Below, in pieces: positions 8,146 to 56,209 of a stretch of 64,000 bases of DNA. The translations under genes were made by a program, and so were the position numbers. Each line of letters opens with the position of its first letter. Position 1 is the stretch's first letter. Source of the stretch: a phage; assembly GCA_024683775.1 (NCBI GenBank), contig GCA_024683775.1_4106.1; one strand, written 5' to 3'. The notes under the pieces were generated by a model that was not told the DNA's origin, made no database searches, and saw only the letters and a program-made list of their open reading frames with translations.

Positions 8146-9111
8146 GTGAAAAAGCTTGATTTAAATGCAATTTCTGAAGAAGTACTGGATGAGTGTTTTG
8201 CTAGTGAAGAAGTCAACGTATTAGAGGCTCTTGATTCCGTCGAAGAAGAAGAACATGACGGTCACAAGTTTGAGAAACCAAAAACAGGTATCAGCTTAAC
8301 TCGCCCTAAAGGGATAACGAATGAAATGCTCATCCAAGCAGTGCGTGATGGTATTGACGTTGAAAAGAACATTGACCTTTTGGTTCGCTACAACTATCCA
8401 ATGGTAGTAAGTGTTGCACGTAAGTGTACATGTTTTATCCCATTTGAAGATAAGATTTCTTATGGTGTTGAAGGTTTAATGCGAGCAATTCATACGTTCG
8501 ACACTACCAAAAATGTTAAGTTCATTACATATGCAACAACAACTGTGTACATGACAATCTATAACGAAAGTGCAGATGCTAATTATCTAGTGCATTTCCC
8601 ACGTTATATGAGTGTTAATAACATTTATGTGAAACGTTGTGTAGAAGAGTATCAAAGGAAACATGGTAAATACCCAACTCCTGAGATGGTGTCAAAAGAG
8701 ACTGGTATTGAGATTCAACACGTTAAGAATTGTCTAACTTACAGTAACACTTATGTAGCATTGAATATGAAAATGAGTAATGATTCAGAAAGTACATTAT
8801 CTGACATTGTTACTTCAGTTGAACCTGATTACAACTTAGGCGTAGAAACTGTCAGTACCCCACTGGTACAAAGTATTGCAGAAATGATGAGTAACCTATC
8901 TGCCAAAGACCGTGAATTGATTGAACGTGTACATGGTATTGGTTCTTATTCTGAACCCGAAACGCTACGAGAAATCATTGAGAGTGGTTTTGAAGATGAG
9001 AAGGGTAAGGTCATGACTGCTCGTTCTTCATTGCACCGTAAGTACTCTGAAGCAATGGAACGACTGCGTAAGATGGTTAAGACAAAAGGTTATGAGTTCG
9101 AAGATTTTTAA
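8146..9111 (+). CDS. sigma-70-family RNA polymerase sigma factor-like protein
   Basis: region 2-like block GLMRAIHTFD...KFITYAT and C-terminal region 4-like HTH (MTARSSLHRKYSEAMERLRK); GTG start with GGAG RBS. Confidence 0.6.
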   Translation: MKKLDLNAISEEVLDECFASEEVNVLEALDSVEEEEHDGHKFEKPKTGISLTRPKGITNEMLIQAVRDGIDVEKNIDLLVRYNYPMVVSVARKCTCFIPFEDKISYGVEGLMRAIHTFDTTKNVKFITYATTTVYMTIYNESADANYLVHFPRYMSVNNIYVKRCVEEYQRKHGKYPTPEMVSKETGIEIQHVKNCLTYSNTYVALNMKMSNDSESTLSDIVTSVEPDYNLGVETVSTPLVQSIAEMMSNLSAKDRELIERVHGIGSYSEPETLREIIESGFEDEKGKVMTARSSLHRKYSEAMERLRKMVKTKGYEFEDF

Positions 9112-9118
9112 GATTAAA

Positions 9119-9144
9119 GGGTTGACTTCGGTCAGCCTTTTTTT
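9119..9144 (+). terminator. intrinsic terminator (GGTTGAC-TTCG-GTCAGCC plus T7)
   Basis: stem-loop with UUCG tetraloop followed by T-run directly after the sigma-like gene. Confidence 0.7.
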
Positions 9145-9771
9145 ATGGGACAAATTTATTAATGGTGATACAATGATCTATGTACAATCACAATGACAGT
9201 ACTGGTACTGACAATCTTCCCCTACTTCACTTGAAAATGTAAAGGATAGATGAGCTTTTCATTGTAGCGAACAGCAAAAGAAACCCGTTAGATGTGGGCA
9301 TAGTTTGAACCCCTCACGGCAATGCGGCTGTATAAAGAACCACGTTAGGATAGCTGGTGGTTCCTCGATAGACATATAAGGATAACACCTTACGAATTAT
9401 CTAAGGGAGAGTTATCGAATTTTGTACAGGAAAGTTGCGTCCAAAATTTGAGTACTCACATTAAGTATTTGATTGCATAGATACTTAATGAAGATACACT
9501 ATGTTTAAAAGTGTAGACCGTCATATGAAACTGAAGTAGAGAGAAACAGGATGACCCGCTTTCGCACTCGTTATGAGTAATCTTCAATGCAATAGCTCTG
9601 ATACCATCAGCGTCAAATTTCCCTCCGTGCGGGGGGAAGAAAAATCCCTTCCTCAAATCCCGTCAATATTAAAAGTCCTTGACAGTTATGATTCATTCGC
9701 GTAGAATACGTAGTATTAGAAGCGAACAGACATCTCGAAGAGATGGATGATTAACCATTGAGGAATATCTA

Positions 9772-9981
9772 ATGAATTCAGTAATCTTTTTAATTATTGC
9801 TCTTTCACCACAATCTGGTGTACAAATCACCCCAATGAATTCAATGAATCAATGCATTGCAGTACGTGACAGTACGTATGAACAAGTAAACAGCGTTTCA
9901 CTTAGAACAGTTGGTGAAGAATTAATGTGGTGTTACAATAGTAATACTAAAGAAAAACTAATTGTTGGACAAACAGAATGA
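9772..9981 (+). CDS. hypothetical small protein
   Basis: 69-aa ORF. Confidence 0.4.
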   Translation: MNSVIFLIIALSPQSGVQITPMNSMNQCIAVRDSTYEQVNSVSLRTVGEELMWCYNSNTKEKLIVGQTE

Positions 9982-11507: not shown

Positions 11508-11535
11508 TTGACATAAGATATCAGTACTGTATAAT
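11508..11535 (+). promoter_or_regulatory. sigma70-like promoter TTGACA-N16-TATAAT with CAGTACTG spacer
   Basis: consensus hexamers read directly; followed by ~90-nt leader before the 11629 gene. Confidence 0.6.
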
Positions 11536-11628
11536 GTTTATATCAAAGGGAATGCAGTGAAAGGAAAGACAGCATAATCGTACTCGTCACTGCGTTTCCA
11601 CCCTTTTAAATTAAATGAGGAATTAACT

Positions 11629-17060: not shown

Positions 17061-17252
17061 ATGTTGATTTATCAATGTGATAACATTCGTGTTATGCAGC
17101 ATCCCTACTTACAAATCTTTGATGTGCAGCAGTATATGGAAGGTGATGATCCAAGAACCTATGGTCGTAAGTATGATTACTTCACTGTAAAGCAGTGTCG
17201 TGACATCAAAGAAGTACGACAATTAGTTCAAGAACTTCAAAATAAAGGTTGA
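17061..17252 (+). CDS. hypothetical small protein
   Basis: ATG at 17061 with GAGGA RBS. Confidence 0.4.
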   Translation: MLIYQCDNIRVMQHPYLQIFDVQQYMEGDDPRTYGRKYDYFTVKQCRDIKEVRQLVQELQNKG

Positions 17253-17278
17253 CTTCGGTCAACCTTTTTTGTTATAAT
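17247..17278 (+). terminator. dual terminator-promoter element (hairpin GGTTGAC-TTCG-GTCAACC, T6, TATAAT)
   Basis: -35-like TTGACT lies inside the terminator stem; TATAAT 18 nt downstream. Confidence 0.7.
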
Positions 17279-17307
17279 TATTTCATCAACTACTGGGGAT
17301 TTTAATT

Positions 17308-17748
17308 ATGTACGTATATCGTTTTGAACTTAAATTCAGTTATATTGAACCTAACTTAGATCCAGCAAAAACAGTAGGGCCGTTCGCACGGTACTCTTCA
17401 CGATACAGTACTAAAAATGGATTTGACCGTTTGTGCATGACCACGCCTTCGCAATTCCAACCAGAACCAACTGAAGATGGAATCTATTCAATCAAACGTG
17501 GCTGGGCATTTGGCTGTCAGAGTTTGAATGATTTGTTTAAGTTCTTTACTATGGACTTGGGTAAATTACATCGTGCAGGGTTTGCTGTATCAGTATATGA
17601 AGTTCCTGATAATCATGTTGACATTGGTCGTAGTCAGGTTCAGTACTATTGTGGTAGTGCCAATCTGGTTCGTATCATGTCAGTGAGAGAAGCAAAGGAT
17701 GAGTACCGCCAAAGTAAAAGAGTAATACATGAGGCTGTATATGGATAA
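17308..17748 (+). CDS. hypothetical protein
   Basis: 146-aa ORF. Confidence 0.5.
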   Translation: MYVYRFELKFSYIEPNLDPAKTVGPFARYSSRYSTKNGFDRLCMTTPSQFQPEPTEDGIYSIKRGWAFGCQSLNDLFKFFTMDLGKLHRAGFAVSVYEVPDNHVDIGRSQVQYYCGSANLVRIMSVREAKDEYRQSKRVIHEAVYG

Positions 17749-18085
17749 GACTCAAATAGAATTAAAAAAATTTGTATCGTTTTATCTACCCAATGACCCA
17801 CGTTGTACACAATATGATGTTGCATATTACAATGCATTGACTACGCAGTTAATGAAGAAATTCAAACAATGTTTGACTGTATTCAATGATGATGGTAGAC
17901 GTAGATATAGAATCATTCCAATGAATGATGAAAACGATAACTACTTTGACTTTGATGTTGTTTTTAGAGCATACAGTGATGATAGAATAAAATTAAATTA
18001 TGAGCAAATAATGCTTGACCTGAGTGTTATCTGTGTTATAATTACTCACATAGCCGAACTTGATGGTTTAAAAGAATGGTATTAA
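17729..18085 (+). CDS. hypothetical protein
   Basis: 118-aa ORF; alternative start 17741. Confidence 0.45.
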   Translation: MRLYMDKTQIELKKFVSFYLPNDPRCTQYDVAYYNALTTQLMKKFKQCLTVFNDDGRRRYRIIPMNDENDNYFDFDVVFRAYSDDRIKLNYEQIMLDLSVICVIITHIAELDGLKEWY

Positions 18086-18099
18086 CTTAGAGGATAATC

Positions 18100-18366
18100 A
18101 TGAAGCTTAAATTACAATACAATGGTTTTACTTTGCGTAACGACACTGAGTTTGTCAATCGTTCACCAGGTGCCGAGTTGTTTTTGCGAGAGATGAACAT
18201 TCCTTTCGTCATCACTACTGTTGGTGACCGTGAAGTGCTACAATACGCAGAGCATCCAGTTATTGATGTTCCGTGGTATTCTGAGCATATGTATATGGAT
18301 ATGGCCCGTCGCTACGACTGTAAGTTCGTAGTTGAAGGTGATAAAATTACAGTCCAATTCAAATAA
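18100..18366 (+). CDS. hypothetical small protein
   Basis: 88-aa ORF. Confidence 0.45.
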   Translation: MKLKLQYNGFTLRNDTEFVNRSPGAELFLREMNIPFVITTVGDREVLQYAEHPVIDVPWYSEHMYMDMARRYDCKFVVEGDKITVQFK

Positions 18367-18377
18367 GGTAACTTAAA

Positions 18378-18671
18378 ATGATCAGTACTTCAGTAAATGC
18401 AAGCATCGTGGCAGACGTAGAAATGGTTAAAGAATGTACAGACGAAACCCTTCGCAACATGTACATCAATGATTTGATTTCAGAGTACGGAAGTCGTGGT
18501 GTTCATGAGTTTGTTCGCCTAAGCGGTGAATTGATGAAGAATCGCATTCGTATGAAGCTTAATGTGCATCCAAAAGCATGGGCGTTTACAATGAAGTACG
18601 CTGAAGATATTGTTGAATTGCGTCGCAATGATGTGTATAATCGTTTACACAATGGTACATTAAAGGACTAA
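18378..18671 (+). CDS. hypothetical small protein
   Basis: 97-aa ORF. Confidence 0.45.
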   Translation: MISTSVNASIVADVEMVKECTDETLRNMYINDLISEYGSRGVHEFVRLSGELMKNRIRMKLNVHPKAWAFTMKYAEDIVELRRNDVYNRLHNGTLKD

Positions 18672-18721
18672 ATTATAGGAATCCGTAAAAGGATTCCTGT
18701 TCTTGTTTATAAGGTAATAAA

Positions 18722-18946
18722 ATGAAATATCTAGTACTAGTACTGCTATTCTTGAGTACTGTTGTATGTGCTAAACCAAAGTATCATGTAGTGTGTATCA
18801 ACGAGATGGAAGGGTATACTGAAACATATAAGAACCATATTGTTGAAGTTGCAGCCCAAGGTTCCTATGGGACCATCATCTTCCTTAAGAACAATGTGAT
18901 TGTTCAGTACAAAAAAGATTCAAATTGTAAAGTGACTAAAAATTGA
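18722..18946 (+). CDS. hypothetical small secreted protein
   Basis: signal-peptide-like N-terminus MKYLVLVLLFLSTVVCA. Confidence 0.45.
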   Translation: MKYLVLVLLFLSTVVCAKPKYHVVCINEMEGYTETYKNHIVEVAAQGSYGTIIFLKNNVIVQYKKDSNCKVTKN

Positions 18947-19016
18947 TCTAGATCAATTTTTCAGATATTCTCTGTAAATAATAGCAGTACAGAACATTAT
19001 TTTACGGAGGTGTAAT

Positions 19017-19253
19017 ATGGAAACTATAATCATCATATGTGCGTTGTTTGCATTTTTGGTAATGTGGTCACCAACATTCATTGCATATAAAATGAAAAAT
19101 AAAAATGCAGAAGCAATTATGTACGTAAACTTATGTTGCATACTAACTTATGGAATACTTTTATTCTTTACTGAATTTACATTAATCCCAGTAGTAGTTT
19201 GTTCATCAATGTTTATTTGGTTGTTTCTGCTTTATGAATCTATTAAAAAATAA
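19017..19253 (+). CDS. hypothetical small membrane protein
   Basis: 78-aa ORF with two hydrophobic segments. Confidence 0.45.
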   Translation: METIIIICALFAFLVMWSPTFIAYKMKNKNAEAIMYVNLCCILTYGILLFFTEFTLIPVVVCSSMFIWLFLLYESIKK

Positions 19254-19307
19254 AAGATATAGGGTTGGTAATATGCCATCCCTTTTACTTTATGTGGGGT
19301 TTAATTA

Positions 19308-19880
19308 ATGAATAGAAAAGGTAAGTTTAAAGTATCAAAGAAGAACAAAAGTTCTAGATTTAGACCTATAACTTTAACTTTTAAGGCTAAAGAAGAATTA
19401 ACTGCACTTAGTAAAAAGATAATTTCATCTAAGATTAAAGTATCATACGTAAATTCGGTAAAATTTCAGAAGGTTAAACCACAAGACAAACTCATTTCAC
19501 TTATATTTAAACGTAATGATTTTGAGATATTAGTAGATGATTATAGAGCCTATAATGCTGGATTCATTCATGTCACTTGTAATACCGAACTAACTGAGTT
19601 GGAACATTTGACATGTATCATAAGTGTAGATAACGGTGTGGTGAAGTACAATTTTTTACATTTTACCAATATCAATAATGGAATGGGTGTACAATCCAGA
19701 CCTATAGTACCTACATGTGATGTAACTAATTTAGCAAAGCTCAATGAAGAAGAATATTTTCAAGAAAGCATTGTAACTGAGCATTTAGATGCTATAATAG
19801 CAACTTACAAAGAATGCATATGGGTTTTGAATGCGATAAAGCCCAAATTGTGTTTAATGAATGTCGTTCGTGATTTATAA
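19308..19880 (+). CDS. hypothetical protein
   Basis: 190-aa ORF. Confidence 0.5.
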   Translation: MNRKGKFKVSKKNKSSRFRPITLTFKAKEELTALSKKIISSKIKVSYVNSVKFQKVKPQDKLISLIFKRNDFEILVDDYRAYNAGFIHVTCNTELTELEHLTCIISVDNGVVKYNFLHFTNINNGMGVQSRPIVPTCDVTNLAKLNEEEYFQESIVTEHLDAIIATYKECIWVLNAIKPKLCLMNVVRDL

Positions 19881-19893
19881 CTGGAGATGAAGT

Positions 19894-20337
19894 ATGGGTT
19901 GGATTAACGTTAATAGCATTGAGCTAAATGAGCAAGACATATTTGCCTTTGTTAATTTGGTAGAGAACATTGCTATTAAAGGTCGTCTGTTTAGTTCATC
20001 GGACGGTAAAAAATGGATCTCTCTTATGAACGACAATGGCGAGATTTATGACGTTATGCAACTACCTCATTGGGCTTATAAGAATACATCTGATGATGTG
20101 ATGGCTGCTGTTATGCGTGAGTTTGAGAAGCTGCCAGGTGGTGATATTAAGAACATCGTATTCAATGCAGAACGCATGAACTACACACCAGAGCAGCTTC
20201 AACAGTTGGCAATTGCTGCCTATCAAGCTGCCATTAAGAAACCTGAATGTGTGATATTAAAGTACACACCGAACTTGAAGTTAACACTAGAAGATATGGA
20301 TTCCTTTATCTTCAGTTCAGAACTTAAACAGTACTGA
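19894..20337 (+). CDS. hypothetical protein
   Basis: 147-aa ORF. Confidence 0.5.
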   Translation: MGWINVNSIELNEQDIFAFVNLVENIAIKGRLFSSSDGKKWISLMNDNGEIYDVMQLPHWAYKNTSDDVMAAVMREFEKLPGGDIKNIVFNAERMNYTPEQLQQLAIAAYQAAIKKPECVILKYTPNLKLTLEDMDSFIFSSELKQY

Positions 20338-20448
20338 TTTGACTTTGGAACAACCATTTCATATGTGATATAATCTTAAGTGTCTGTTGAAATAAACAGC
20401 ACATGAAGTATAAATATTAAAGTAATTTATCTCTTTAAGGAGTATGAA

Positions 20449-20832
20449 ATGGTTGATAAATGGAATAAGAAAGATCCATCGCATGATGTGGATATTTCTG
20501 GAATTGATAATGCACATAAGCATAAGTATCTTGATTCACTAGGTCTACTAAAGCCTGACCAAAGTCTTGCACATGATCGTCCTTCACGTGAAAAAGCTTT
20601 CAGTCTAGAATCACTAGGCCATGAATTGAATCGTGTATTTGAAGATCATCCAATTTATGTACGTGATATCATTGAGAAACTTAAAGTGACTCCTAAAGAG
20701 CACTTCAAGGCAACAGTACACGCAGCATTCCGTGCACTACATGAAGCACTAAAGAAAACTCATAACCTTCGCAAGATTCATGATGACATCGTGAACTCTA
20801 TTGAAGGCGAAAAACATAAGTTTAAAAAATAA
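20449..20832 (+). CDS. hypothetical protein
   Basis: 127-aa ORF; extended -10-like TGATATAAT upstream near 20365. Confidence 0.5.
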   Translation: MVDKWNKKDPSHDVDISGIDNAHKHKYLDSLGLLKPDQSLAHDRPSREKAFSLESLGHELNRVFEDHPIYVRDIIEKLKVTPKEHFKATVHAAFRALHEALKKTHNLRKIHDDIVNSIEGEKHKFKK

Positions 20833-20838
20833 TTAAAA

Positions 20839-20872
20839 GGGGTTGACTTCAGTCAGCCCTTTGTCGTATAAT
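20839..20872 (+). terminator. dual terminator-promoter element
   Basis: GGGTTGAC-TTCA-GTCAGCCC hairpin, then TATAAT 18 nt after the embedded TTGACT. Confidence 0.6.
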
Positions 20873-20919
20873 ATTTTCATCAAGTGATACAAAATACAAA
20901 CAACGTGAGGTATTAAATT

Positions 20920-21033
20920 ATGCAAGGTACTAAATTCATCATCGCTGCCCTAATCGCTGCTGTTGTAGTGGGTACAGTATGTTATTCAATTGACACCTAT
21001 ATCAATACACCTAGTGTTGAACAAACCAAATAA
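20920..21033 (+). CDS. 37-aa hydrophobic micro-peptide (below ORF-track cutoff)
   Basis: ATG with GAGG RBS; hand translation MQGTKFIIAALIAAVVVGTVCYSIDTYINTPSVEQTK. Confidence 0.35.
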   Translation: MQGTKFIIAALIAAVVVGTVCYSIDTYINTPSVEQTK

Positions 21034-21041
21034 GGGATATC

Positions 21042-21299
21042 ATGGCTGAAACATTATCACTATATGCGTTAGTACTGTTATTTGTCGGATTTCTTCCCGC
21101 ACTCATTACAGCCATTCGTGTTGTTAAACATGAAGCTGCATTGATTGTATGTAGTATTGGGTCGAACATTCTATTGTATTTCTTTTTGACAAATACTATT
21201 GTACTGTTTGCTTTCTTTATCATGATTCTGTGGGTACTTGTAATTCTCGGATTCTTCATTTGGTCATTGGTTGATCCTAAGAAAAAACAGGAGAAGTGA
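21042..21299 (+). CDS. hypothetical small membrane protein
   Basis: 85-aa ORF with hydrophobic segments. Confidence 0.45.
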   Translation: MAETLSLYALVLLFVGFLPALITAIRVVKHEAALIVCSIGSNILLYFFLTNTIVLFAFFIMILWVLVILGFFIWSLVDPKKKQEK

Positions 21300-21300
21300 A

Positions 21301-21597
21301 ATGAAATTAATTATTGTAATGATGATGTGTTTGGCTTTCCCAGTACTGGCTACTCCTAATCTGGACTGCACACTGTTGCGTTCAGATGGTGACACACTTG
21401 AAATCAACACATATGAACTCTTTGGTCCAAGTGTAGTGGAGAATGAAACCACCTACAATTTCAAAGCTATTGACTTTGAAGGTAATGTTCCAGTACTAAC
21501 TACAATGACTATTGACAAAACTACTTTACTCGGACGAATCACCACACAACGCGGAGAAAGTAAAACATTCACAGCGAAAGCTGACTGTAACTACTAA
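21301..21597 (+). CDS. hypothetical small secreted protein
   Basis: ATG at 21301 with GGAG RBS; signal-peptide-like N-terminus. Confidence 0.45.
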   Translation: MKLIIVMMMCLAFPVLATPNLDCTLLRSDGDTLEINTYELFGPSVVENETTYNFKAIDFEGNVPVLTTMTIDKTTLLGRITTQRGESKTFTAKADCNY

Positions 21598-21618
21598 TGG
21601 TATAGTACAGTGAAAATA

Positions 21619-21649
21619 GGGTTGACTTCGGTCAACCTTTATATATAAT
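21619..21649 (+). terminator. dual terminator-promoter element
   Basis: GGGTTGAC-TTCG-GTCAACC hairpin, then TATAAT 16 nt after the embedded TTGACT. Confidence 0.65.
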
Positions 21650-22190
21650 GGAAGAAATAAACATGGAACGTTGGAAATTAATTCCTGATTATGACTATTC
21701 AATTTCTGATCATGGAAGAGTAAGAAACGAACAAACTGGATATATAAGTTGTGGATTTAAAAATAAAGATGGGTATGTGAAGGTCGATTTGTATCGCAAT
21801 TCTGTGAAAAATAGAAAGGCGATTCATCGACTAGTAGCTGAAGCATTTTTACCACCACCCACACAGAAACAGTTACAGTGGGCAAGTAGAACAAAGAAAA
21901 AAGTTGTTCACATAAACCATAAAGATTGTAATAGAAGTAACAATCACTATTTGAATTTGGAATGGAACACAGCATCTGAAAACGTACTATATTCTTATTC
22001 ACATGGTAACGCAACAACTAATCGTGGTGCTGCTGTGTTGACATGGGAAATTGTAAGAGAAATAAGAAAAGATTATAATGATAATTATAATGATGTGATA
22101 GAATATGCACGAGAAAATTGTAATAAATACCGTGTATGTAAAAAAACAATACGTCGTATTTTATACAATCAAACATGGATAGAGGATTAA
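21648..22190 (+). CDS. HNH homing endonuclease-like protein
   Basis: N-terminal WKLIPDY...GRVRN motif and HINHKDCNRSNNHYLNLEW...EN HNH-type motif. Confidence 0.65.
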   Translation: MEEINMERWKLIPDYDYSISDHGRVRNEQTGYISCGFKNKDGYVKVDLYRNSVKNRKAIHRLVAEAFLPPPTQKQLQWASRTKKKVVHINHKDCNRSNNHYLNLEWNTASENVLYSYSHGNATTNRGAAVLTWEIVREIRKDYNDNYNDVIEYARENCNKYRVCKKTIRRILYNQTWIED

Positions 22191-22194
22191 AAAT

Positions 22195-23688
22195 ATGCCA
22201 CAAGATAATGGGGATATGAAACATCGTAATGGTGGACTAGTACAACACTCGGATAAATGGGCCGACCGAAATCGTCGCAAAAATAGTTATCAAGCAGGAC
22301 AAGGTTCACGTGGTTCACGTAATCAAGGGACAGGTTTAGCTGGTAAGGCAAACGCAGAAGCAGGTGAAGTTAAGAGTACTGAGAACATGACTGAGCTAGA
22401 AAAGCTACGTTATGTTAACTCATTAGGTCTTCTTAACGCAACACAGAAACAACGCCTTGCTGATATGGAACGTGCTGAGAAAGAACAAGCAGTTCCTAAA
22501 GAAGAACCAAAACCAGAAGCTCCTAAAGCAGCTAACCCTGTTAAAGAGTTATCTGATAACTTAGGTAAGATCTTTGCTAACAAACCACAGTTGATTCAGG
22601 GTATTGTCAAAGCACTACAGGCAGTTCCTAAAGAAGAACTCAAAGGTAAAGCACAAGCTGTACTTGATGCAATGAAAGGTAATAAGAGCACTGAACCCAC
22701 TGAAGTATTCAGTACTATCATGCGTGCACTTGAAGGTACACACAAAGAAGATTCGAAAGAACCTGAACAGGGTGAAGCAAGTCTTGATGGTATTCTTAAA
22801 ACTTTTGATAGTATTGGTAAAGCAGACCGTGCTAATGCCCAGCAAGTCAAGAATGTACTGGCTAAACTTGAAAACCGTTTAGAAGGTAAAGACGATAAGG
22901 TTAAGCTCGTATCAGATGCAGTTAACAGTGCACTTAAATCTTATGTACAAGGTGAGAAAAGTCGCTTCGTAACAGCTATGGATGCTGCATTCAACACTAT
23001 GAAAAAGTATGAAGCAGAACATGGTGAGAAAGTGACACCTGATGGATATCTACTACGTAAAGATGAAGAAGGTGCAGTTGAACAGAAAGATGTTGAGCCT
23101 GAGCAAGAAGATCTACCTGATACCGTTGATATGGATGGATACATTCATCGTCCTGAGATGGAAGAGTTTGGGTCAGATAAAGAAGGTTTTGAACATGCAA
23201 TGGCAGTATATAAAGCATTAGTTAAAAATCCAGATTATGCTAACCGTTTTGTTGACGAGTTTGATAGTGCATGGAATAACTACAAAGACAAAGGTTATGA
23301 CTTCCCTGCTGAAGCTGCATTCTTTGAACTTGGTAAACTATTAGCTAAACATGGAATTGACGTTGGTTCATCTGATTCTGACGGTATGGAAGAAGAACAT
23401 CTTGAAATGACTGATAAATCAATTCATGAACTTCAAAAGTTAATGATGTGGATATCCGAGATTGGTAAAAAAGCAGGTGCTGATAGTAAAAGTATCAACA
23501 AAAATATTAGTTGGATTAAAGATAATGTTGGTAACAATGCTCGTAAACTTCAAAAGGCTTGGGCTGATTTAGTAAATGGTGCAGATGATGTTGACATTGA
23601 ATCACCAGAAGCATATGAGTATGCACTAACTACACTTGATAACTCATTCAAAGAGTACGACCGTGGTGTTGGAAAGGATAAAAAATAA
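22195..23688 (+). CDS. hypothetical highly charged protein (497 aa)
   Basis: long ORF with basic Arg/Gly/Ser-rich N-terminus and Lys/Glu/Asp-rich body. Confidence 0.6.
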   Translation: MPQDNGDMKHRNGGLVQHSDKWADRNRRKNSYQAGQGSRGSRNQGTGLAGKANAEAGEVKSTENMTELEKLRYVNSLGLLNATQKQRLADMERAEKEQAVPKEEPKPEAPKAANPVKELSDNLGKIFANKPQLIQGIVKALQAVPKEELKGKAQAVLDAMKGNKSTEPTEVFSTIMRALEGTHKEDSKEPEQGEASLDGILKTFDSIGKADRANAQQVKNVLAKLENRLEGKDDKVKLVSDAVNSALKSYVQGEKSRFVTAMDAAFNTMKKYEAEHGEKVTPDGYLLRKDEEGAVEQKDVEPEQEDLPDTVDMDGYIHRPEMEEFGSDKEGFEHAMAVYKALVKNPDYANRFVDEFDSAWNNYKDKGYDFPAEAAFFELGKLLAKHGIDVGSSDSDGMEEEHLEMTDKSIHELQKLMMWISEIGKKAGADSKSINKNISWIKDNVGNNARKLQKAWADLVNGADDVDIESPEAYEYALTTLDNSFKEYDRGVGKDKK

Positions 23689-23698
23689 ACATTTAAAA

Positions 23699-23723
23699 GG
23701 TTGACTTCGGTCAACCTTTTTTT
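23699..23723 (+). terminator. intrinsic terminator (GGTTGAC-TTCG-GTCAACC plus T7)
   Basis: hairpin and T-run immediately after the 497-aa gene. Confidence 0.7.
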
Positions 23724-23759
23724 GTAAATATTGTAGAGGGTTTTATAAGAGGTAATGCA

Positions 23760-24011
23760 ATGTTTAAATATGTTTTATTTTCACTTGTATTGTTTACTGA
23801 TATAGTTTATAGTACTGAATACCAGTGCTCTATTGCTAGACAGGAGTTTAGAAACGGTGAGTTCTATACCAAGTCTTACACTAGAGGATTGGTACATGAC
23901 AATAATAAAACTATAGGGTTCAATGCATTTGATAACAAAGATCGATATACGTCTGGAATACTATCTGAACGTAAGTCGGATGTAATAGGTATCGAGCATG
24001 AATTCCGGTGA
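23760..24011 (+). CDS. hypothetical small secreted protein
   Basis: signal-peptide-like N-terminus. Confidence 0.45.
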   Translation: MFKYVLFSLVLFTDIVYSTEYQCSIARQEFRNGEFYTKSYTRGLVHDNNKTIGFNAFDNKDRYTSGILSERKSDVIGIEHEFR

Positions 24012-24372
24012 CACAGTTGCAATGTGTAATGATATTGAGAGTACTAAGAAAGTATATACTAATGGTGAAAATACCTTTAGATTCCACAATCTTACTACCA
24101 ATGAAAGTTTATACTTCTACAACTGTAAAGAGTTCATTAAACCTGTGGATAACTCATGTGATATGCCGGAGCCAAAAGCTGCTGTATGTGAGGAACCACA
24201 ATCCAAAGCTGACAAAGATTCAAAAGATAAGAAAGACAAAGCTGACAAATTGGATAAAAAAGAAAACAAAAAGAAAGCTAAAGATGATAAAGATAAAAAG
24301 TCCCCTAAGCCAAATCCATTTGAAAAGCCAAAGAATGAAAAGCCAAAACCAGACATGACATGTAAAATATAA
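23998..24372 (+). CDS. hypothetical protein with Lys/Asp-rich low-complexity C-terminus
   Basis: 124-aa ORF with KDKKDKADKLDKKENKKKAKDDKDKK tail. Confidence 0.45.
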   Translation: MNSGDTVAMCNDIESTKKVYTNGENTFRFHNLTTNESLYFYNCKEFIKPVDNSCDMPEPKAAVCEEPQSKADKDSKDKKDKADKLDKKENKKKAKDDKDKKSPKPNPFEKPKNEKPKPDMTCKI

Positions 24373-24379
24373 AAGAAAA

Positions 24380-24412
24380 GGGTTGACTTCGGTCGGCCCT
24401 TTTTGCTATAAT
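24380..24412 (+). terminator. dual terminator-promoter element
   Basis: GGGTTGAC-TTCG-GTCGGCCC hairpin, T-run, then TATAAT. Confidence 0.65.
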
Positions 24413-24438
24413 CATTTCATCAACTACTGGAGGCAAAC

Positions 24439-24852
24439 ATGTTAAAAGTTATTTTCCGTTCTATCAGTTCATTACTTCTTATGATTAGTTCAGTTTCTTA
24501 TGCAAATGAAGTATCTGACTTGTTTGAGAAGAATTACCCAACTGCACAAGAGATGGGTGTTTTAAAATGCAAGCTAACTTCGTACAACATCATCGGCAGT
24601 AAACTTGTACTGGAACATGAACGTAGTACACCAATCCCTCTAGTAGAAGAAGGCAGTACCTTTAGCTTCAAGTACGGGGTGAACGTAACATCTGGTGTAA
24701 TGAACAATGTTGATGCAGAGACTGGTTCAACATGGAGTACTAGCGGTAAAGATGTGTTTCATCGTATGCGTGAAAATGGTAAACTGAAGTACGTATATGA
24801 AAGTTCATTCATGAAACGTGTATTCATTATAAAAAATTGTGTACCAGCATAA
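24439..24852 (+). CDS. hypothetical secreted protein
   Basis: signal-peptide-like N-terminus. Confidence 0.5.
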   Translation: MLKVIFRSISSLLLMISSVSYANEVSDLFEKNYPTAQEMGVLKCKLTSYNIIGSKLVLEHERSTPIPLVEEGSTFSFKYGVNVTSGVMNNVDAETGSTWSTSGKDVFHRMRENGKLKYVYESSFMKRVFIIKNCVPA

Positions 24853-24863
24853 GGAACAACATC

Positions 24864-25139
24864 ATGCGTTCATTTGAAAACTTAATCGGTAAACTTCGCT
24901 TACAAGAAATTGAAGATGATGTGAAGGAATTATCTGAAACTAAGAGTTACATTCATTTAGATGAACTGTTTATTAAGTACGGTGAGATTGGTTTTAAGTC
25001 ATTATTTGTTTTTGTCATGAAGGTGCATAGTTTAAAGTACTTTGATTTGAGTTCAAAAGACGGACAACCAAATCTGTATTACATGTATTATCTTAAGAAC
25101 ATAGACGAAGCTAATACATTATTCTTAGAATATATGTAG
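24864..25139 (+). CDS. hypothetical small protein
   Basis: ATG at 24864 with AGGA RBS. Confidence 0.45.
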   Translation: MRSFENLIGKLRLQEIEDDVKELSETKSYIHLDELFIKYGEIGFKSLFVFVMKVHSLKYFDLSSKDGQPNLYYMYYLKNIDEANTLFLEYM

Positions 25140-25148
25140 GGGGTAAAA

Positions 25149-25487
25149 ATGGAACATCATTTTGAATTAATTAATAAGGTATCATTTTATGTAGTATCGT
25201 TAATTTGGGTGTATTACATGTTTTGTTACATTATTGCATTCTTCCGATACACAACCTTGTATCAACGCATATACTACGATGCACCCATTTCATTTATGAT
25301 GTTCTGTGCATGTACGTGGGGGATAATTGAAGCACTGGTATGTGGATATAGTACTGACGAATTAAATCTCGTATCGGGGTTGACATTACTAACAATTGCC
25401 ATTATGATAGCTACTGTTCCGATATTTTTGCTCTTTAAACTGCTTCATCGTATTGATGAGTGGCGTAATAAAATCCCTGAAAAGTAA
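25149..25487 (+). CDS. small membrane protein, paralog family B member 1
   Basis: 3-4 hydrophobic segments; C-terminal EWRNKIPEK tail shared with paralogs. Confidence 0.55.
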   Translation: MEHHFELINKVSFYVVSLIWVYYMFCYIIAFFRYTTLYQRIYYDAPISFMMFCACTWGIIEALVCGYSTDELNLVSGLTLLTIAIMIATVPIFLLFKLLHRIDEWRNKIPEK

Positions 25488-25496
25488 GGATTGATA

Positions 25497-25838
25497 ATGA
25501 TTTTTTACACTAATGCGTTTGCTTATGCCGTTGCATCAATCTACATTGTGTACTTCTTATTTGGTGGAGTACTGTACTTCTTTAAGTACAAAACATTGTT
25601 TAACCGAATGTATCCAAATCATCCAATTGTAGTAGTACTTTTGATTATTTCTGTTGCTCACATCATTGTAGAAACAATAATGGGTATCAGTGCAGTACAT
25701 TACAGTCTAGGTACTATTGTAATTATTACTATGATCATCGCATACATTTTAGTAATGGGTTTTGGTTTATTTGGAAATGTAGCAATGAAATTGTATAATC
25801 GAATCAAAACATTACGTGATAATCTACCGGAGCGTTGA
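25497..25838 (+). CDS. small membrane protein, family B member 2
   Basis: C-terminal LRDNLPER tail; ATG at 25497. Confidence 0.55.
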   Translation: MIFYTNAFAYAVASIYIVYFLFGGVLYFFKYKTLFNRMYPNHPIVVVLLIISVAHIIVETIMGISAVHYSLGTIVIITMIIAYILVMGFGLFGNVAMKLYNRIKTLRDNLPER

Positions 25839-25839
25839 G

Positions 25840-26184
25840 ATGTATAATTTAAATTTAATATCATATATCATAACAACACTGTTTACTTTCTATGCCTTTG
25901 TTGGTATACTCCTACTGTACTTTAAATTTTATAAACTTTTTGATCGTTTTTATCCGTCATTAGAACATGAATTCTTATTAGTGATGTACATATGTCTAAC
26001 GTTTATGTCTACATTTTTCACTGCATCTGATGGTATCATTGGTATTAAAGCTGAAGAACCAAATGGGAGTACGCTTGTTGCCTTTATTCTGGTAGGATTT
26101 TTCAGTACTTATATTACCTTTATTTCAGGATGTACCGTGATTGATTATCTTGTGAAATTACGAGATAAAATGCCAAATCGATAG
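25840..26184 (+). CDS. small membrane protein, family B member 3
   Basis: C-terminal LRDKMPNR tail; ATG at 25840 with GGAG RBS. Confidence 0.55.
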   Translation: MYNLNLISYIITTLFTFYAFVGILLLYFKFYKLFDRFYPSLEHEFLLVMYICLTFMSTFFTASDGIIGIKAEEPNGSTLVAFILVGFFSTYITFISGCTVIDYLVKLRDKMPNR

Positions 26185-26193
26185 GGGATTGCT

Positions 26194-26451
26194 ATGTTTG
26201 CATTGCGTAATAAAAATACAAAAGAGATTCTGTGTATCTCAACAGTATGGGATTGTGCAGGAAGTGAAATGATTCTCGAAGAAGGTTCAGGTGATTGTGT
26301 TTATGTTGTTCAGGATCGTCGCGAACTGGAATCATTACTTGACGAATTTAATGCTGGTGGAAATCCTAAAAGTACTCAATTCCCTGAGATCAGGAATCCA
26401 GCACCACCAGGCTCTTATGAAATTCTACAACTGTGGGAGATGGATAAGTAA
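26194..26451 (+). CDS. hypothetical small protein
   Basis: 85-aa ORF. Confidence 0.45.
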   Translation: MFALRNKNTKEILCISTVWDCAGSEMILEEGSGDCVYVVQDRRELESLLDEFNAGGNPKSTQFPEIRNPAPPGSYEILQLWEMDK

Positions 26452-26831
26452 TGCGTCAAATGCACAAAGTAACCGAGCTAAACAAGCGTCTGATTAAACA
26501 ATCAATGTTTGAGGATAAAGAGTCTTACTATAACTTCAAACGTGCTGTAGAGGCTGCTATCCACATTCAGAAGCTTAAAGATAGTGGATGTATTATTCTC
26601 GAAAATGGTTCTGACGTTGTTACTGATGACTTCAGTGTAGCGTTTGATGTTTCACCTGATGGTTCGCTATCAATGCCACGCTTAGGGACTGGTGACATGA
26701 CTGTGTGGGTAGGTTTCACTATGGGGAATGTACCAGGCACGGTGTATGTAGATGATGCTGAGTTGAAAGAAAGCTTCAAAAACTTATCGCATCTTGAACC
26801 ACAATACGCACATGAAATGAATTTATTTTGA
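26451..26831 (+). CDS. hypothetical protein
   Basis: 126-aa ORF. Confidence 0.5.
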   Translation: MRQMHKVTELNKRLIKQSMFEDKESYYNFKRAVEAAIHIQKLKDSGCIILENGSDVVTDDFSVAFDVSPDGSLSMPRLGTGDMTVWVGFTMGNVPGTVYVDDAELKESFKNLSHLEPQYAHEMNLF

Positions 26832-26832
26832 G

Positions 26833-26860
26833 TTGACAAACTCATTCAGTACTGTATAAT
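26833..26860 (+). promoter_or_regulatory. sigma70-like promoter TTGACA-N16-TATAAT with CAGTACTG spacer
   Basis: hexamers read directly; followed by leader hairpin GGGGATGA-ACTTC-TCATCCCC at 26870..26890. Confidence 0.6.
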
Positions 26861-26907
26861 GTTTATCAAGGGGATGAACTTCTCATCCCCACAATCGAGG
26901 AATTGTC

Positions 26908-27462
26908 ATGATTACTTTTAAGAAAACTGCTAACCACATCCATGAGATCTACATTAACGGTCACAAAGCTGGCCTTCTTCGTTTACTCGCCCATCATCCG
27001 AATATTACCGTATCTGATAATGAACCTAAAGATTGGCGTGTATTTTTCTTTGGAAAGTACAGTGATTTTCAAGTATCAAACCTGAAGAACATTCGTTCAG
27101 TATGCACGTTAACTGAAATTAAAGAAAAGTTAACCAAAGCATTGAAAACTAATCCAGATAGTGTTCTTCCACCTGATAACTTTGTAGAGAAAGGATATGC
27201 CTTAGCTCATTTCAAAGATGGTACTATTCAATCTATCAGTACTGAATATGAATATCAATGGACTGAGTACTTCACTTATGGATCGCGTAATACATTGATG
27301 GCTTCACGTAGTAAATTGGAAGAAGTACTGACTCGTATGAATGAACGCGAGCGTCAATTTTATGACAAACCAGAAATGTGGAGTTCAACTTACATTGACC
27401 GTATTGACTATGTTATTATGACTCCAATCTTTGACACTGCTTACTATGATTCTTTGAAATAA
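26908..27462 (+). CDS. hypothetical protein
   Basis: 184-aa ORF downstream of promoter and leader hairpin. Confidence 0.55.
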   Translation: MITFKKTANHIHEIYINGHKAGLLRLLAHHPNITVSDNEPKDWRVFFFGKYSDFQVSNLKNIRSVCTLTEIKEKLTKALKTNPDSVLPPDNFVEKGYALAHFKDGTIQSISTEYEYQWTEYFTYGSRNTLMASRSKLEEVLTRMNERERQFYDKPEMWSSTYIDRIDYVIMTPIFDTAYYDSLK

Positions 27463-27473
27463 GGATAACTTAT

Positions 27474-27650
27474 ATGAAACTACGTACTCGTAATCGACTG
27501 ATGGATGCACTGTACCATGAACAGCTTTCACTGAATGAAGTGAAGCGTCAGTTAATGTACACATATCTGTTACCCGCTCGCATTGCAAAACAACGTGCTA
27601 AAGAATTGCTGAAAGAAGCAATCGAGTACTGGGAATCTGATTCGTACTAA
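27474..27650 (+). CDS. 58-aa hypothetical protein (below ORF-track cutoff)
   Basis: ATG at 27474 filling an otherwise empty gap; hand translation MKLRTRNRLMDALYHEQL... Confidence 0.35.
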   Translation: MKLRTRNRLMDALYHEQLSLNEVKRQLMYTYLLPARIAKQRAKELLKEAIEYWESDSY

Positions 27651-27678
27651 TTGTCACGTTAATTAAGTGAGGCGATAA

Positions 27679-27930
27679 ATGAAAATTTTATTAGTTCTAA
27701 TACTACTAATTGTTTTACCATTTACGTTAGTATCCCCTGAACTTGCATGGAATGTGTTTGTGTACTTACTATGTACTATTGTAGTAAATGGTATCTTGTT
27801 CTTAGTTCTATTCATAAATGGAATAGGACACGGTGGAGGATGGACCAGTACTGCTGATATTGTACATAAAACCACTATGTCTTTATTTGTAGTGTGGAAT
27901 TTATTCTGGACTTGGTTTGTGTTCTTCTAA
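27679..27930 (+). CDS. hypothetical small membrane protein
   Basis: 83-aa ORF with hydrophobic segments. Confidence 0.45.
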   Translation: MKILLVLILLIVLPFTLVSPELAWNVFVYLLCTIVVNGILFLVLFINGIGHGGGWTSTADIVHKTTMSLFVVWNLFWTWFVFF

Positions 27931-27939
27931 TTAAAAAAT

Positions 27940-28311
27940 ATGAATATAGATTTGAAAGGTGCAACCCGAACTGTCATACTCATTGGGGAATATGCTATCA
28001 AGATTCCAACCTTTAAAAGTTGGAAGCTATTCTTAACAGGGATGATAGCTAACCTCAATGAACGTTCTTGGATGCAGTACTCCAAGCGTAGTGATAGTGG
28101 TATCTGCCCTACGTTGTGGTCATCATGTACTGGACTAGTAACTGTACAGAAACGTTGTAAGCCAGTACAACATAGGGGTTTATTTTGGGTGGAGTTGTGT
28201 GCTTTAGCATTGGATTCAGAGTTGAGTACTGACTTCTTCTATTCAGATGCGAAGCCAGAAAACTTTGGGTATCTGGGTGGTAAGTTAGTTAAACTTGATT
28301 ATGGAGATTAA
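27940..28311 (+). CDS. hypothetical protein
   Basis: 123-aa ORF. Confidence 0.5.
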   Translation: MNIDLKGATRTVILIGEYAIKIPTFKSWKLFLTGMIANLNERSWMQYSKRSDSGICPTLWSSCTGLVTVQKRCKPVQHRGLFWVELCALALDSELSTDFFYSDAKPENFGYLGGKLVKLDYGD

Positions 28312-28312
28312 T

Positions 28313-28600
28313 ATGTACGCACTGTATAATAAAGAAAAGAAACAATTTGCTAAGGTTGAAAAATCGATTGATACATTTGGCATGTTTAAGTACTGTATTG
28401 TGACGGACCCATATGCTAACTTGTATTACGTTCTTGATGACGTATCAGTACTGCAACGATTGCTTGAACGTTCCAAAAGCCAATGCCAAGGTATCCATGA
28501 TGGTTCAACTTATGAAACACCTGAGTGTTCCTATGGCTATCTGGATGGGTATGAGATTGTGAAGTTGGGTGCATTGTTGAATAAATGGATTAAACAATGA
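28313..28600 (+). CDS. hypothetical protein
   Basis: ATG at 28313 with GGAG RBS. Confidence 0.45.
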   Translation: MYALYNKEKKQFAKVEKSIDTFGMFKYCIVTDPYANLYYVLDDVSVLQRLLERSKSQCQGIHDGSTYETPECSYGYLDGYEIVKLGALLNKWIKQ

Positions 28601-29010
28601 AGAAGTGTATCACGTGTAATATTGAAAAAGACATTAGTGAATTTGGTATAAGAAGTGATACTGGGAAACATAGAAATACATGCAAAGGTTGTAGTAATAT
28701 TACCAGTAAGAGAACCAGAAATAAAAAAACTGATGTAAAAACACTTGAAGAAATCAAAAGAAAAAATAAAGATTTCATGACCAGAGTTAAATCATTTTAT
28801 GGTTGTAGTGTTTGTATGATGAAGTATCCAGAATGTTTAGACTTTCACCATCTTGACCCTAATACCAAAGAACATACACCAAGTTCTATGTTCAGTAAAA
28901 GTCGAGAATCTATCAAAGATGAAATTCGAAAGTGTATGATTCTTTGTTCTAATCACCATCGCATGGTACATTCTGGTAGACTATGTTTGATTGAAAGAAA
29001 AAAGGGTTGA
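28597..29010 (+). CDS. HNH endonuclease
   Basis: CxxC zinc-knuckle pairs plus DFHHLDP ... CSNHHRMVH motif; stop codon lies inside the downstream terminator stem. Confidence 0.65.
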   Translation: MKKCITCNIEKDISEFGIRSDTGKHRNTCKGCSNITSKRTRNKKTDVKTLEEIKRKNKDFMTRVKSFYGCSVCMMKYPECLDFHHLDPNTKEHTPSSMFSKSRESIKDEIRKCMILCSNHHRMVHSGRLCLIERKKG

Positions 29011-29036
29011 CTTCGGTCAGCCCTTTTTGCTATAAT
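29004..29036 (+). terminator. dual terminator-promoter element
   Basis: GGGTTGAC-TTCG-GTCAGCCC hairpin, T5, then TATAAT 18 nt after the embedded TTGACT. Confidence 0.7.
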
Positions 29037-29064
29037 CATTTCATCGAAACGAGAGGATGAATAC

Positions 29065-29580
29065 ATGACACGCATTAACTTAGTACACGTTAAAGAACTT
29101 GCTGACCAACATCTGATGGCTGAATATCGTGAACTCCCACGTGTGTTTGGTGCTGTACAAAAACATGTTCAAGCACGTAAGCGAGTCCGTGATTTCAAAA
29201 TTAACAGTACTTACCTGTTAGGTTCAGGTCATGTAACATTCTTCTACAACAAGTTATTGTACTTACAGAAGCGTCATATTGATATTGTTAACGAATGTTT
29301 GCGTCGTGGGATGAAGATTCAAAACACTGAAGTAAACGACATTAGCGGATTCCCTACTGAGTTTTGTAATGACTACGTACCATCGGAGTCAGAGATTAAA
29401 ATGTCTCGTGAGCGTTTGATTGAGAAGCTACAGATGAAGCCTACGTGGTATAAGTTTACTGATGTTGAACGCCCACAGTACGTTAAAGATATGCAGGACG
29501 TAAGTAGTAATATAGAATCTAGTACTGATATGTTCGACGAAATTGAAGAACAAATCAAAGATGAAATGAATAATTATTAA
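29065..29580 (+). CDS. denV: pyrimidine dimer DNA glycosylase (T4 endonuclease V homolog)
   Basis: N-terminus [35 protein letters not shown]...GHVTFFY matches the T4 endoV sequence as I recall it; carries an extra acidic C-terminal extension. Confidence 0.88.
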
Positions 29581-29587
29581 AGGTAAG

Positions 29588-29619
29588 GGTTGACTTCGGT
29601 CAGCCCTTTTTGCTATAAT
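29588..29619 (+). terminator. dual terminator-promoter element
   Basis: GGGTTGAC-TTCG-GTCAGCCC hairpin, T5, then TATAAT. Confidence 0.7.
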
Positions 29620-29647
29620 TATTTCATCAACTGATGAGGATAACGAA

Positions 29648-55574: not shown

Positions 55575-55802
55575 ATGACAAATACTTTTAAGTACTACCT
55601 CAATACTCTAAATGAACTAGAGTACGCGAAGTTTCTCGCGGATAGTTCGTGGCTAATTGAGCTAAAAACACATAACAGTACTGGATGTAACCTTATGCTG
55701 AACAATGCACTTGATACCCTTGTAGTGAGTATTTTACACAGCACCATCTGCGGGGATAGCAATAAACAATTATCAAAAATCTTAGTACTGGTAGCTCTAT
55801 GA
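55575..55802 (+). CDS. mini-protein paralog C1
   Basis: 75 aa; N-terminal MTNTFKYYLNTL; AAGGAG RBS. Confidence 0.5.
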   Translation: MTNTFKYYLNTLNELEYAKFLADSSWLIELKTHNSTGCNLMLNNALDTLVVSILHSTICGDSNKQLSKILVLVAL

Positions 55803-56011: not shown

Positions 56012-56012
56012 T

Positions 56013-56198: not shown

Positions 56199-56209
56199 AA
56201 GAGTACTAT

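Follow-up and report, generated by a model that had tools for sequence, protein, structure and literature searches.

In a 64,000-nt stretch of phage DNA (contig GCA_024683775.1_4106.1 of the GenBank assembly GCA_024683775.1; the whole stretch is hereafter called the window), a short repeated element that combines a hairpin with promoter-like sequences was found between genes. We consider it likely that these elements are composite regulatory cassettes of the type called PeSL (promoter-early stem-loop), located in the early region of an Asteriusvirus phage that is rich in small open reading frames (ORFs). The window was 98-99% identical to the Escherichia phages EC.P1 and fEgEco12 and ~89% identical to 121Q, which are Asteriusvirus jumbo phages of ~350-385 kb, and it is part of the genome of an Asteriusvirus (121Q/PBECO4-like) jumbo coliphage. 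All eight copies of the element were located within a block at 9-30 kb, a plastic region with ~70 small ORFs on the + strand, most of which have no known function. This block starts right behind a phage sigma-factor gene (8146-9111; Sigma70_r2/r3 domains) and includes genes for endonuclease V and HNH endonucleases as well as two virion-protein genes. An exhaustive scan of 121Q in IMG/VR gave the same picture on the scale of a whole genome (348.5 kb): seven copies with a UUCG loop, all inside 14 kb of the syntenic region.

The repeat has the form GGGTTGAC-TTCG-GTCA[AG]CCC, and its + strand copies span the region from 9.1 to 29.6 kb. A search with GGGTTGACTTCGGTCARCCC allowing up to two mismatches returned exactly eight sites in the window, starting at 9119, 17246, 20840, 21619, 23698, 24380, 29004, and 29587, all on the + strand, whereas no site was returned from 100 dinucleotide shuffles. 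The same eight sites were obtained with the 13-nt core TTGACTTCGGTCA and at most one mismatch, against 0.04 expected. All copies were found in intergenic positions and in the orientation of the genes, each bounded by the stop codon of one ORF and the start codon of the following one; the upstream stop codon lay 8-21 nt before the stem or within it. In the latter arrangement, the TGA inside TTGAC is the stop codon of the upstream ORF, as found for two ORFs ending at 17252 and 29010. The second of these (28597-29010) is an HNH endonuclease according to PHROG 2255 (E 2.5e-32), although a Pfam search of this ORF gave no match.

Five copies (17246, 20840, 24380, 29004, and 29587) were complete modules composed, in this order, of an A-tract, the hairpin, a T-run, TATAAT, and a leader of 20-41 nt with a Shine-Dalgarno (SD) site. 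They thus show the full layout of a PeSL, with the stop codon and the A-tract at the 5' end and the SD site and ATG at the 3' end. A conserved [TC]ATTTCATCAAC leader extends the complete copies to the SD site, so that the whole repeat is ~60 nt long. In three copies, the outermost stem pair was A/T or G/T (AGG...CCT, GGG...CCT).

The complete module at 17246..17278 consists of a hairpin at 17246-17265 (AGGTTGAC-TTCG-GTCAACCT; fold, -13.3 kcal/mol), the putative -35 box TTGACT at 17249-17254, T5 at 17266-17270, TG at 17270-17271, and TATAAT at 17273-17278, with the upstream stop codon (TGA, 17250-17252) in the stem and the next ATG at 17308. It was identical to its 121Q ortholog at 32 of 33 positions, and the sole change, an A-to-G substitution in the 3' arm, preserves the pairing as G·U. 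The module at 20840..20872 has its hairpin at 20840-20859 (loop TTCA; -16.0 kcal/mol), the -35 box at 20843-20848, a short T-run (TTTGTCG), and TATAAT at 20867-20872, and is followed by a 37-aa ORF from 20920; in 121Q and G17, the loop of this copy is TAAG and its -10 is TATCAT. At 24380..24412, the 3' arm of the hairpin (24380-24399; -18.0 kcal/mol) is GTCGGCCC with two G·U pairs, and the -35 box (24383-24388), T5, TG, and TATAAT (24407-24412) are followed by the SD sequence GGAGG and an ATG at 24439. The module at 29004..29036 (hairpin, 29004-29023; -19.0 kcal/mol; -35 box, 29007-29012; T5; TG; TATAAT, 29031-29036) precedes the endonuclease V (Pyr_excise) gene, whose ATG is at 29065, and was identical to 121Q at 33 of 33 positions despite a different upstream gene. 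The last module, at 29587..29619 (hairpin, 29587-29606; -16.0 kcal/mol; -35 box, 29590-29595; T5; TG; TATAAT, 29614-29619), precedes an ORF for an AAA-like ATPase with its ATG at 29648.

Two further copies carry the hairpin and a run of T6-7 without a -10 box. The copy at 9119..9144 (hairpin GGGTTGAC-TTCG-GTCAGCCT at 9119-9138, then T6; -13.9 kcal/mol, z -5.7) lies 8 nt past the stop codon of the sigma-factor gene, with no -10 at 16-19 nt, and the G17 record marks the orthologous hairpin as a terminator predicted by ARNold. The copy at 23698..23724 (hairpin AGGTTGAC-TTCG-GTCAACCT at 23698-23717, then T7; -14.2 kcal/mol) lies 10 nt past the stop codon of the virion structural protein gene at 22195-23688 (PHROG 20398) and was identical to 121Q at 33 of 33 positions. 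Behind the sigma-factor gene, a 630-nt ORF-free gap (9140-9770) is present in the window and in its relatives. It contains a candidate extended -10 promoter at 9147-9174 (GGGACA-N16-TACAAT with TG); the fold of the gap was no better than that of shuffles (z -1.2), and no Rfam family matched it.

The remaining copy, at 21619..21649, consists of a hairpin (21619-21638), a weak U-run (TTATATAT), and a doubtful -10, TATAAT at 21644-21649, spaced by 16 nt. Next comes an inserted gene for an HNH_3/NUMOD4 endonuclease, which ends at 22190 and probably starts at 21663. This TATAAT is not present in the relatives and arrived with the inserted gene; at the same site, the relatives have TATACT at 17 nt and a late-type TATAAATA motif before a virion structural gene. 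Transcription starting ~7 nt past TATAAT would give a leader of only 7 nt without an SD site, the predicted start lying beyond the SD. The TATAAT of this copy is probably adventitious. The insertion (21641-22245) also replaced TATAAATA and the first ~17 codons of the virion structural gene in comparison with fEgEco12, with which homology picks up again only at 22246.

The repeat had been described in the original prediction as a dual element, with coordinates that proved correct within 1 nt, and most of its details withstood the analysis: the two copies with a terminator alone (9119 and 23699, the latter truly starting at 23698), the position of TATAAT 16-18 nt past TTGACT (18 nt in five copies and 16 nt in 21619), and the HNH gene's stop codon within the stem at 29004 (TGA, 29008-29010). 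The TTCG loop, stated for all copies, is general but not invariant, as the TTCA of 20840 shows. Likewise, all six copies said to carry TATAAT do carry it, but only five of them are convincing promoters.

As for the terminator half, each copy was predicted to form a 4-nt loop on a core stem of 8 bp, which the A-tract and the U-run lengthen to 10-13 bp. The fold energies of the eight copies ranged from -12.1 to -19.0 kcal/mol (z -3.9 to -5.7), and T5-7 followed the stem in six of them, the exceptions being the weak U-tracts of 20840 and 21619. These features (a GC-rich stem of at least 5 bp, a loop of 3-8 nt, a U-tract within ~8 nt, and a position behind an ORF) are those by which an intrinsic terminator is defined. 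In all eight copies, the sense 20-mer folded as stably as the antisense or better, with a gap of up to 6.8 kcal/mol at 24380 (sense, -11.9 kcal/mol; antisense, -5.1 kcal/mol). Furthermore, orthologous hairpins are marked as terminators in the GenBank records of G17 (by ARNold) and Munch.

As for the promoter half, TTGACT in the 5' arm of the stem matches the -35 box at five of six positions. Five copies contain TTGACT-N18-TATAAT, an 11/12 match to the consensus, and four of these additionally have the TG of an extended -10. The spacing of 16-18 nt and a gene on the same strand agree, at the level of sequence, with what is expected of a PeSL and of a sigma-70 promoter. Between 8 and 31 kb, the + strand had 15 promoters matching at least 11 of 12 positions and the - strand had none, with 0.77 expected from Markov controls (~20-fold excess); six of the 15 were embedded in a hairpin. 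Such a cluster of consensus promoters on the + strand fits an early region read by the host RNA polymerase. In the generic scan as a whole, promoter-like sites numbered 74 (88 expected) and terminator-like sites 11 (8.5 expected), totals that are uninformative; only the high-scoring promoters were enriched.

Subsequently, the elements were compared across phages. The 33-nt core was 93% identical between the window and 121Q, whereas the 150-nt flanks were 71-74% identical, and TATAAT was kept in the 121Q orthologs where the leader diverges. In the distant phage CBB, an identical stem-loop, T-run, and TATAAT precede the endonuclease V ortholog, although the leader differs. Among the Asteriusvirus copies, TTGAC was invariant, the 3' arm had A or G at two positions, and the outermost pair was G-C, A-U, or G-U; all of these stem changes preserve the RNA pairing of the sense strand. 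When the 58-nt element was used as a blastn query, KVP40-type vibriophages were matched at 82% over 49 nt (e.g. gaaaaGGGTTGACTGCGGTCAGCCCtttcgcgTATTATagcttCATCAAC), as were RaK2-like phages, including Munch, in which the loop is GAAA.

A scan of IMG/VR with the stem-fixed pattern GGGTTGACNNNNGTCARCCC matched more than 120 stretches, giving 178 oriented readings; the matches included presumed contigs of KVP40, RaK2, GAP32, CBB, Serratia phage BF, and 121Q. In 102 of the 178 readings, a -10 scoring at least 5/6 was present at 17-18 nt, and it was preceded by TG in 69 of these 102 promoter-bearing copies. Their loops included 36 UNCG and 14 GNRA tetraloops, against ~5% expected by chance, and stem position 17 was G, forming a G·U pair, in 88. 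We also collected, from the same loci, 494 bystander TTGAC/-10 promoters that do not match the stem pattern. In 32 of them, a hairpin with 9 bp or more enclosed the -35 box, in comparison with 2.5 in shuffles. In 24 bystander elements, the outer stem covaried (GGG/CCC, GTCC/GGAC, GAGC/GCTC, GTAC/GTAC, GGC/GCC), with two-sided changes at five pairs and in 26 cells, a level reached by none of 500 shuffles. The partners of TTGAC changed on the 3' side only, from U-A to U-G or from G-C to G-U. This covariation, together with the wobble changes on the 3' side, points to a hairpin in the sense-strand RNA rather than to a palindrome in the DNA. By this comparative evidence, the dual terminator-promoter reading is well supported, and both halves of the element appear to be under selection.

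A related structure was observed near the end of the window. At 63848-63935 on the + strand, a 13-bp hairpin, TGCCGGTATTGAC-ttatttt-GTCAGTACTGGCA, also embeds TTGAC and is followed by CATAAT and CATTGGCAGATAAGCCGTAGCCCATAGGGTGCGG but by no ORF. The downstream motif CATTGGCAGATAAGCCGTAGCCCATAGGGTGCGG also trails GGGTTGAC elements in four viral contigs of ~355-358 kb (L054, L068, L092, and L098). This site may specify a promoter-driven non-coding RNA; no Rfam match was found for it within the window, which ends at 64000.

To locate rearrangements, the region at 8-34 kb was aligned to fEgEco12, BF17, 121Q, and G17. The alignment with 121Q breaks at 20883, 43 nt into the element at 20840, and those with fEgEco12, BF17, and 121Q break at 21640, 2 nt past the hairpin of 21619. 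Another break, at 28990-28999, lies 5-14 nt before the element at 29004 and marks the HNH gene that the window and fEgEco12 hold and that is absent or replaced elsewhere. Overlapping ends of high-scoring segment pairs (29585-29644) coincide with the element at 29587, and this single copy aligns to both of the copies that flank a variable cargo of 1.4-2.9 kb in BF17, 121Q, and G17. The element at 24380 is contained in a block (24132-24849) in place of which 121Q has a different block, with a protein kinase gene and an element of its own. Overall, breaks were found at four of eight element junctions versus six of ~67 other junctions (Fisher p = 0.009). The elements are thus associated with insertions, deletions, and replacements between close relatives, as PeSLs are. 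In addition, 121Q has, at 28750-28790 and directly behind its endonuclease V gene, a half element GGGTTGACTTCGG fused to unrelated ttacacaaaggaacataacATG, which is a crossover scar inside the loop.

An indel was also observed at a perfect plain promoter without a hairpin, TTGACA-N16-TATAAT at 11508-11556. BF17, 121Q, and G17 hold an extra ORF cassette of ~330 bp at this position, with a homology overlap of 19-28 nt at the junction, and promoters without a hairpin may accordingly also serve as recombination sites.

These breakpoints raise the question of whether the repeats are maintained chiefly as recombination modules for the shuffling of gene cassettes, or else as sites that homing endonucleases target or hitch-hike on, with the transcription signals being secondary. 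The clustering of breaks at the elements, the one-copy-to-two-copy relationship at 29587, the half element of 121Q, and the HNH genes that adjoin the elements at 21619 and 29004 all agree with such a view, and mini-circles have been reported for PeSLs (PMC2839356). However, homology would suffice for this purpose; the RNA-specific covariation, the bias toward stable tetraloops, the fixed spacing between -35 and -10, and the strict co-orientation with the genes would be left unexplained. We therefore regard this explanation as improbable; recombination is more plausibly an outcome of having a repeated regulatory cassette than a competing explanation for it.

It could also be supposed that the elements are terminators only. 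TTGAC of the stem and TATAAT would then occur by chance or have no function, and transcription of the downstream genes would depend on read-through or on other promoters. The copies at 9119 and 23698 have no -10, that of 21619 is adventitious, and the GenBank annotators labelled such sites as terminators alone. Against this, a -10 at exactly 17-18 nt recurs in many phage groups, often with TG, and TATAAT is retained in the 121Q orthologs with a diverged leader. The strand-specific excess of consensus promoters in the region, the presence in the leader of an SD site at the correct distance, and the activity of PeSL promoters (PMC2839356) likewise speak for a promoter. A terminator without promoter function thus seems quite improbable for the elements in general.

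Another alternative is that the near-perfect inverted repeat of 20 bp is a DNA operator, bound over the -35 box by a dimeric protein of the phage or the host that controls several early promoters, the RNA hairpin being a by-product. This geometry would be typical of a repressor and is compatible with termination. However, the four central nucleotides vary freely and yet favour stable RNA tetraloops, and the outer stem covaries with its pairing kept. The dominant 3' arm GTCAGCCC, found in the 88 copies with G at position 17, breaks the symmetry of the DNA while keeping the RNA pairing via G·U. Moreover, the antisense folds are weaker, the T-run is always on the sense side, and no candidate binding protein was identified. 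These observations make an operator very improbable. A mobile repeat resembling a miniature inverted-repeat transposable element was rejected, as there were no terminal repeats or target duplications and all copies were co-oriented with the genes, between stop and start codons.

Taken together, these findings suggest that the elements act as PeSL-type terminator-promoter cassettes, a dual mechanism that appears well supported for the five complete copies. In the sense RNA, AAAA-GGGUUGAC-UUCG-GUCAGCCC-UUUUU would form a GC-clamped hairpin with a stable tetraloop and a U-run, that is, an intrinsic terminator that would end or attenuate the transcript of the upstream gene. The same DNA would be a promoter for host sigma-70, in which TTGACT of the 5' arm is the -35 box and the 18-bp spacer is made up of the 3' arm and the T-run; the TG of an extended -10 would arise from the final T of this run and the G behind it, and TATAAT would follow. 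Transcription is expected to start ~7 nt past TATAAT, in the conserved CATTTCATC. This start is downstream of the hairpin, so that the new mRNA would not contain its own terminator and would begin with a leader of 20-41 nt including the SD site. What the sequences show is the anatomy, placement, conservation, covariation, and breakpoint association of the elements; both activities, their efficiencies, and the mechanism of recombination are inferred. Each small early gene or gene group would consequently be an insulated and independently expressed unit. The cassette of ~60 nt, being repeated in direct orientation, would also act as a site of homologous recombination, and gene cassettes, including those with homing-endonuclease genes, would be gained, lost, and swapped at the elements between related phages. 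The dual reading of the original prediction was thus supported, all the sequence features expected of an intrinsic terminator and of a sigma-70 promoter being present.

Several points weigh against this interpretation. The 18-nt spacer exceeds the optimum by one nucleotide. The copies at 20840 and 21619 may terminate weakly with their poor U-runs, and in the two copies with a stop codon inside the 5' arm, the terminating ribosome could hinder the folding of the hairpin. Most of the statistics across phages were obtained on loci that had been retrieved by a search pattern with a fixed stem; only the bystander subset is unbiased by this pattern, yet its members were picked for having a hairpin. 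The high identity among the copies could reflect gene conversion instead of selection on each copy. The breakpoint test is based on four relatives, with the junctions counted by hand. Finally, no data on where transcripts start or end in this phage or its close relatives were found in literature searches.

Beyond the terminator-promoter cassette itself, a broader proposal can be made, which we put forward tentatively and consider rather unlikely to hold as a whole: the element would be an adaptor cassette for early genes across virus families, its wobble pair would enforce a one-way promoter, and unrelated large phages would exchange the cassettes. Near-identical cassettes were found in Asteriusvirus, in jumbo phages of the RaK2, GAP32, and CBB types, in KVP40-type and Aeromonas T4-like phages, and in many uncultured viral contigs, and GGGTTGAC-loop-GTCAGCCC-T-run-(TG)-TATWAT may be an adaptor common to several phage groups. 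According to this proposal, the near-universal G·U pair at position 17 would be selected since it keeps the RNA hairpin and destroys the mirror-image TTGAC on the opposite strand. The shared sequence of ~45 nt would allow unrelated large myoviruses to swap ready-to-express cassettes by short-homology recombination during co-infection.

The present results do not overturn the current understanding of such phages. In the records of Asteriusvirus and RaK2-like phages, the sites are now marked at most as terminators, and their recognition as terminator-plus-promoter cassettes would define early transcription units of poorly understood phages of ~350 kb that are considered for therapy. With regard to evolution, PeSL-type cassette shuffling would be extended beyond the T4 family and would account for several of the differences in gene content among 121Q-like phages. 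The 33-nt element might also be useful for synthetic biology as an insulate-and-restart part in E. coli.

Other repeats were observed elsewhere in the window. On the - strand at 34800-55500, there is an array of ~17 tandem RCC1-like paralogs of ~375-410 aa each, whose spacers contain a second conserved composite consisting of a hairpin GCCAGTACT..(G)TACTGGC, a T-run, TTAAATATAGTATAAT, an SD site, and ATG. The motif TTAAATATAGTATAAT is -10-like or late-like and has no -35 box at the normal spacing, and the equivalent hairpins are marked as terminators in the G17 record; this composite could be an analogue of the terminator-promoter design with a middle or late promoter. At 55575-60372 on the + strand, ~25 small paralogous ORFs of 59-77 aa and the 'MNxxKEYY...' type are arranged in tandem with a period of ~190 nt. 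They are a multigene family, and this stretch has a strong AT skew (0.18-0.20). An ORF-poor region at 61453-61580 contains iteron-like 8-nt periodic repeats (GGATGGCT / AGACGGCT / AAACGGCT), possibly an origin or a protein-binding array. Three tandem 53-nt repeats were found at 62201-62359, and three copies of a 69-nt unit, AAAGTACTTGC-N17-GCGTATAATGTTTTACATCGAGAGCGGGAAC..TTCCCGC, which is promoter-like and then forms a hairpin, at 62372, 62832, and 63509. No Rfam family matched the window at gathering thresholds, only chance-level matches were obtained in E-value searches of 9100-9800 and 60300-64000, and no tRNAs were found in the window.

The terminator-promoter design is already known, as PeSL, from T4-like phages; it is real but not new in kind. 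The original prediction had the architecture of the module right but missed both this precedent and the place of the elements at recombination breakpoints. In 2010, Arbiol et al. (PMC2839356) reported repeated cassettes that combine an early promoter with a stem-loop in the T4-type coliphages RB49 and phi1. They showed with lacZ fusions that these PeSLs are strong promoters and terminators, distinguished five positional subclasses, one of which has the stem-loop over the -35 box, and located recombination events, among them one crossover inside the loop, as well as mini-circles. PeSLs were then also described for T4/PST and KVP40/nt-1 by Comeau et al. (2014; PMC4122927), who give the stem consensus of nt-1 as A3-4 G3-loop-C3 T3-4, which fits the outer stem of the window elements, and describe 'half' PeSLs without a -10, comparable to the copies at 9119 and 23698. 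In the accessible literature, we found these cassettes described for neither Asteriusvirus nor RaK2-like phages, and our searches for transcript maps or descriptions of promoters or terminators in these groups found none. A full-text search for sequence strings of the element retrieved no paper containing them. Neither promoters nor terminators are mentioned in the genome papers of fEgEco12 and Sharanji; in the CBB paper, RpoD-like promoters are listed apart from the terminators, and RNA-seq data exist for PA5oct, which is a distant relative.

The likeness to the PeSLs of RB49 and phi1 is close. Both are intergenic repeats (up to ~100 bp in RB49 and phi1) in which an AT-rich stretch and a sigma-70-like promoter are combined with a stem-loop terminator, an SD site, and ATG, and both occur among small ORFans of a plastic region, at breakpoints of indels or replacements between close relatives. 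However, the stems of RB49 and phi1 are polyG/polyC and occupy varied positions, mostly between -35 and -10 or over -10, whereas the window elements have one fixed register, in which TTGAC always occupies the part of the 5' arm next to the loop, and a near-uniform UUCG loop. The window phage is an Asteriusvirus jumbo phage and, unlike RB49 and phi1, is not a member of the Straboviridae. Promoter, terminator, and mini-circle activities were measured for RB49 and phi1, whereas the window elements are described here from their sequence.

KVP40-type genomes contain aaaaGGGTTGAC-NNNN-GTCAGCCCttt..TATTAT..CATCAAC, which is nearly the sequence of the window element. The KVP40/nt-1 vibriophages belong to another virus family and have another host; their PeSLs have a TATTAT-like -10 and varied loops, in comparison with TATAAT and an almost invariable UUCG in the window, and a -35 box within the stem is not stated for this group in the text of PMC4122927. 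Each half of the window element fits a standard definition, that of the Rho-independent terminators of E. coli on the one hand and that of consensus or extended -10 sigma-70 promoters and T4-type early promoters on the other. In the window element, the terminator and the promoter overlap in the same 33 nt rather than being adjacent. In providing a self-contained expression unit for accessory genes, the element also resembles the lambdoid morons, in which a gene has its own promoter and terminator.

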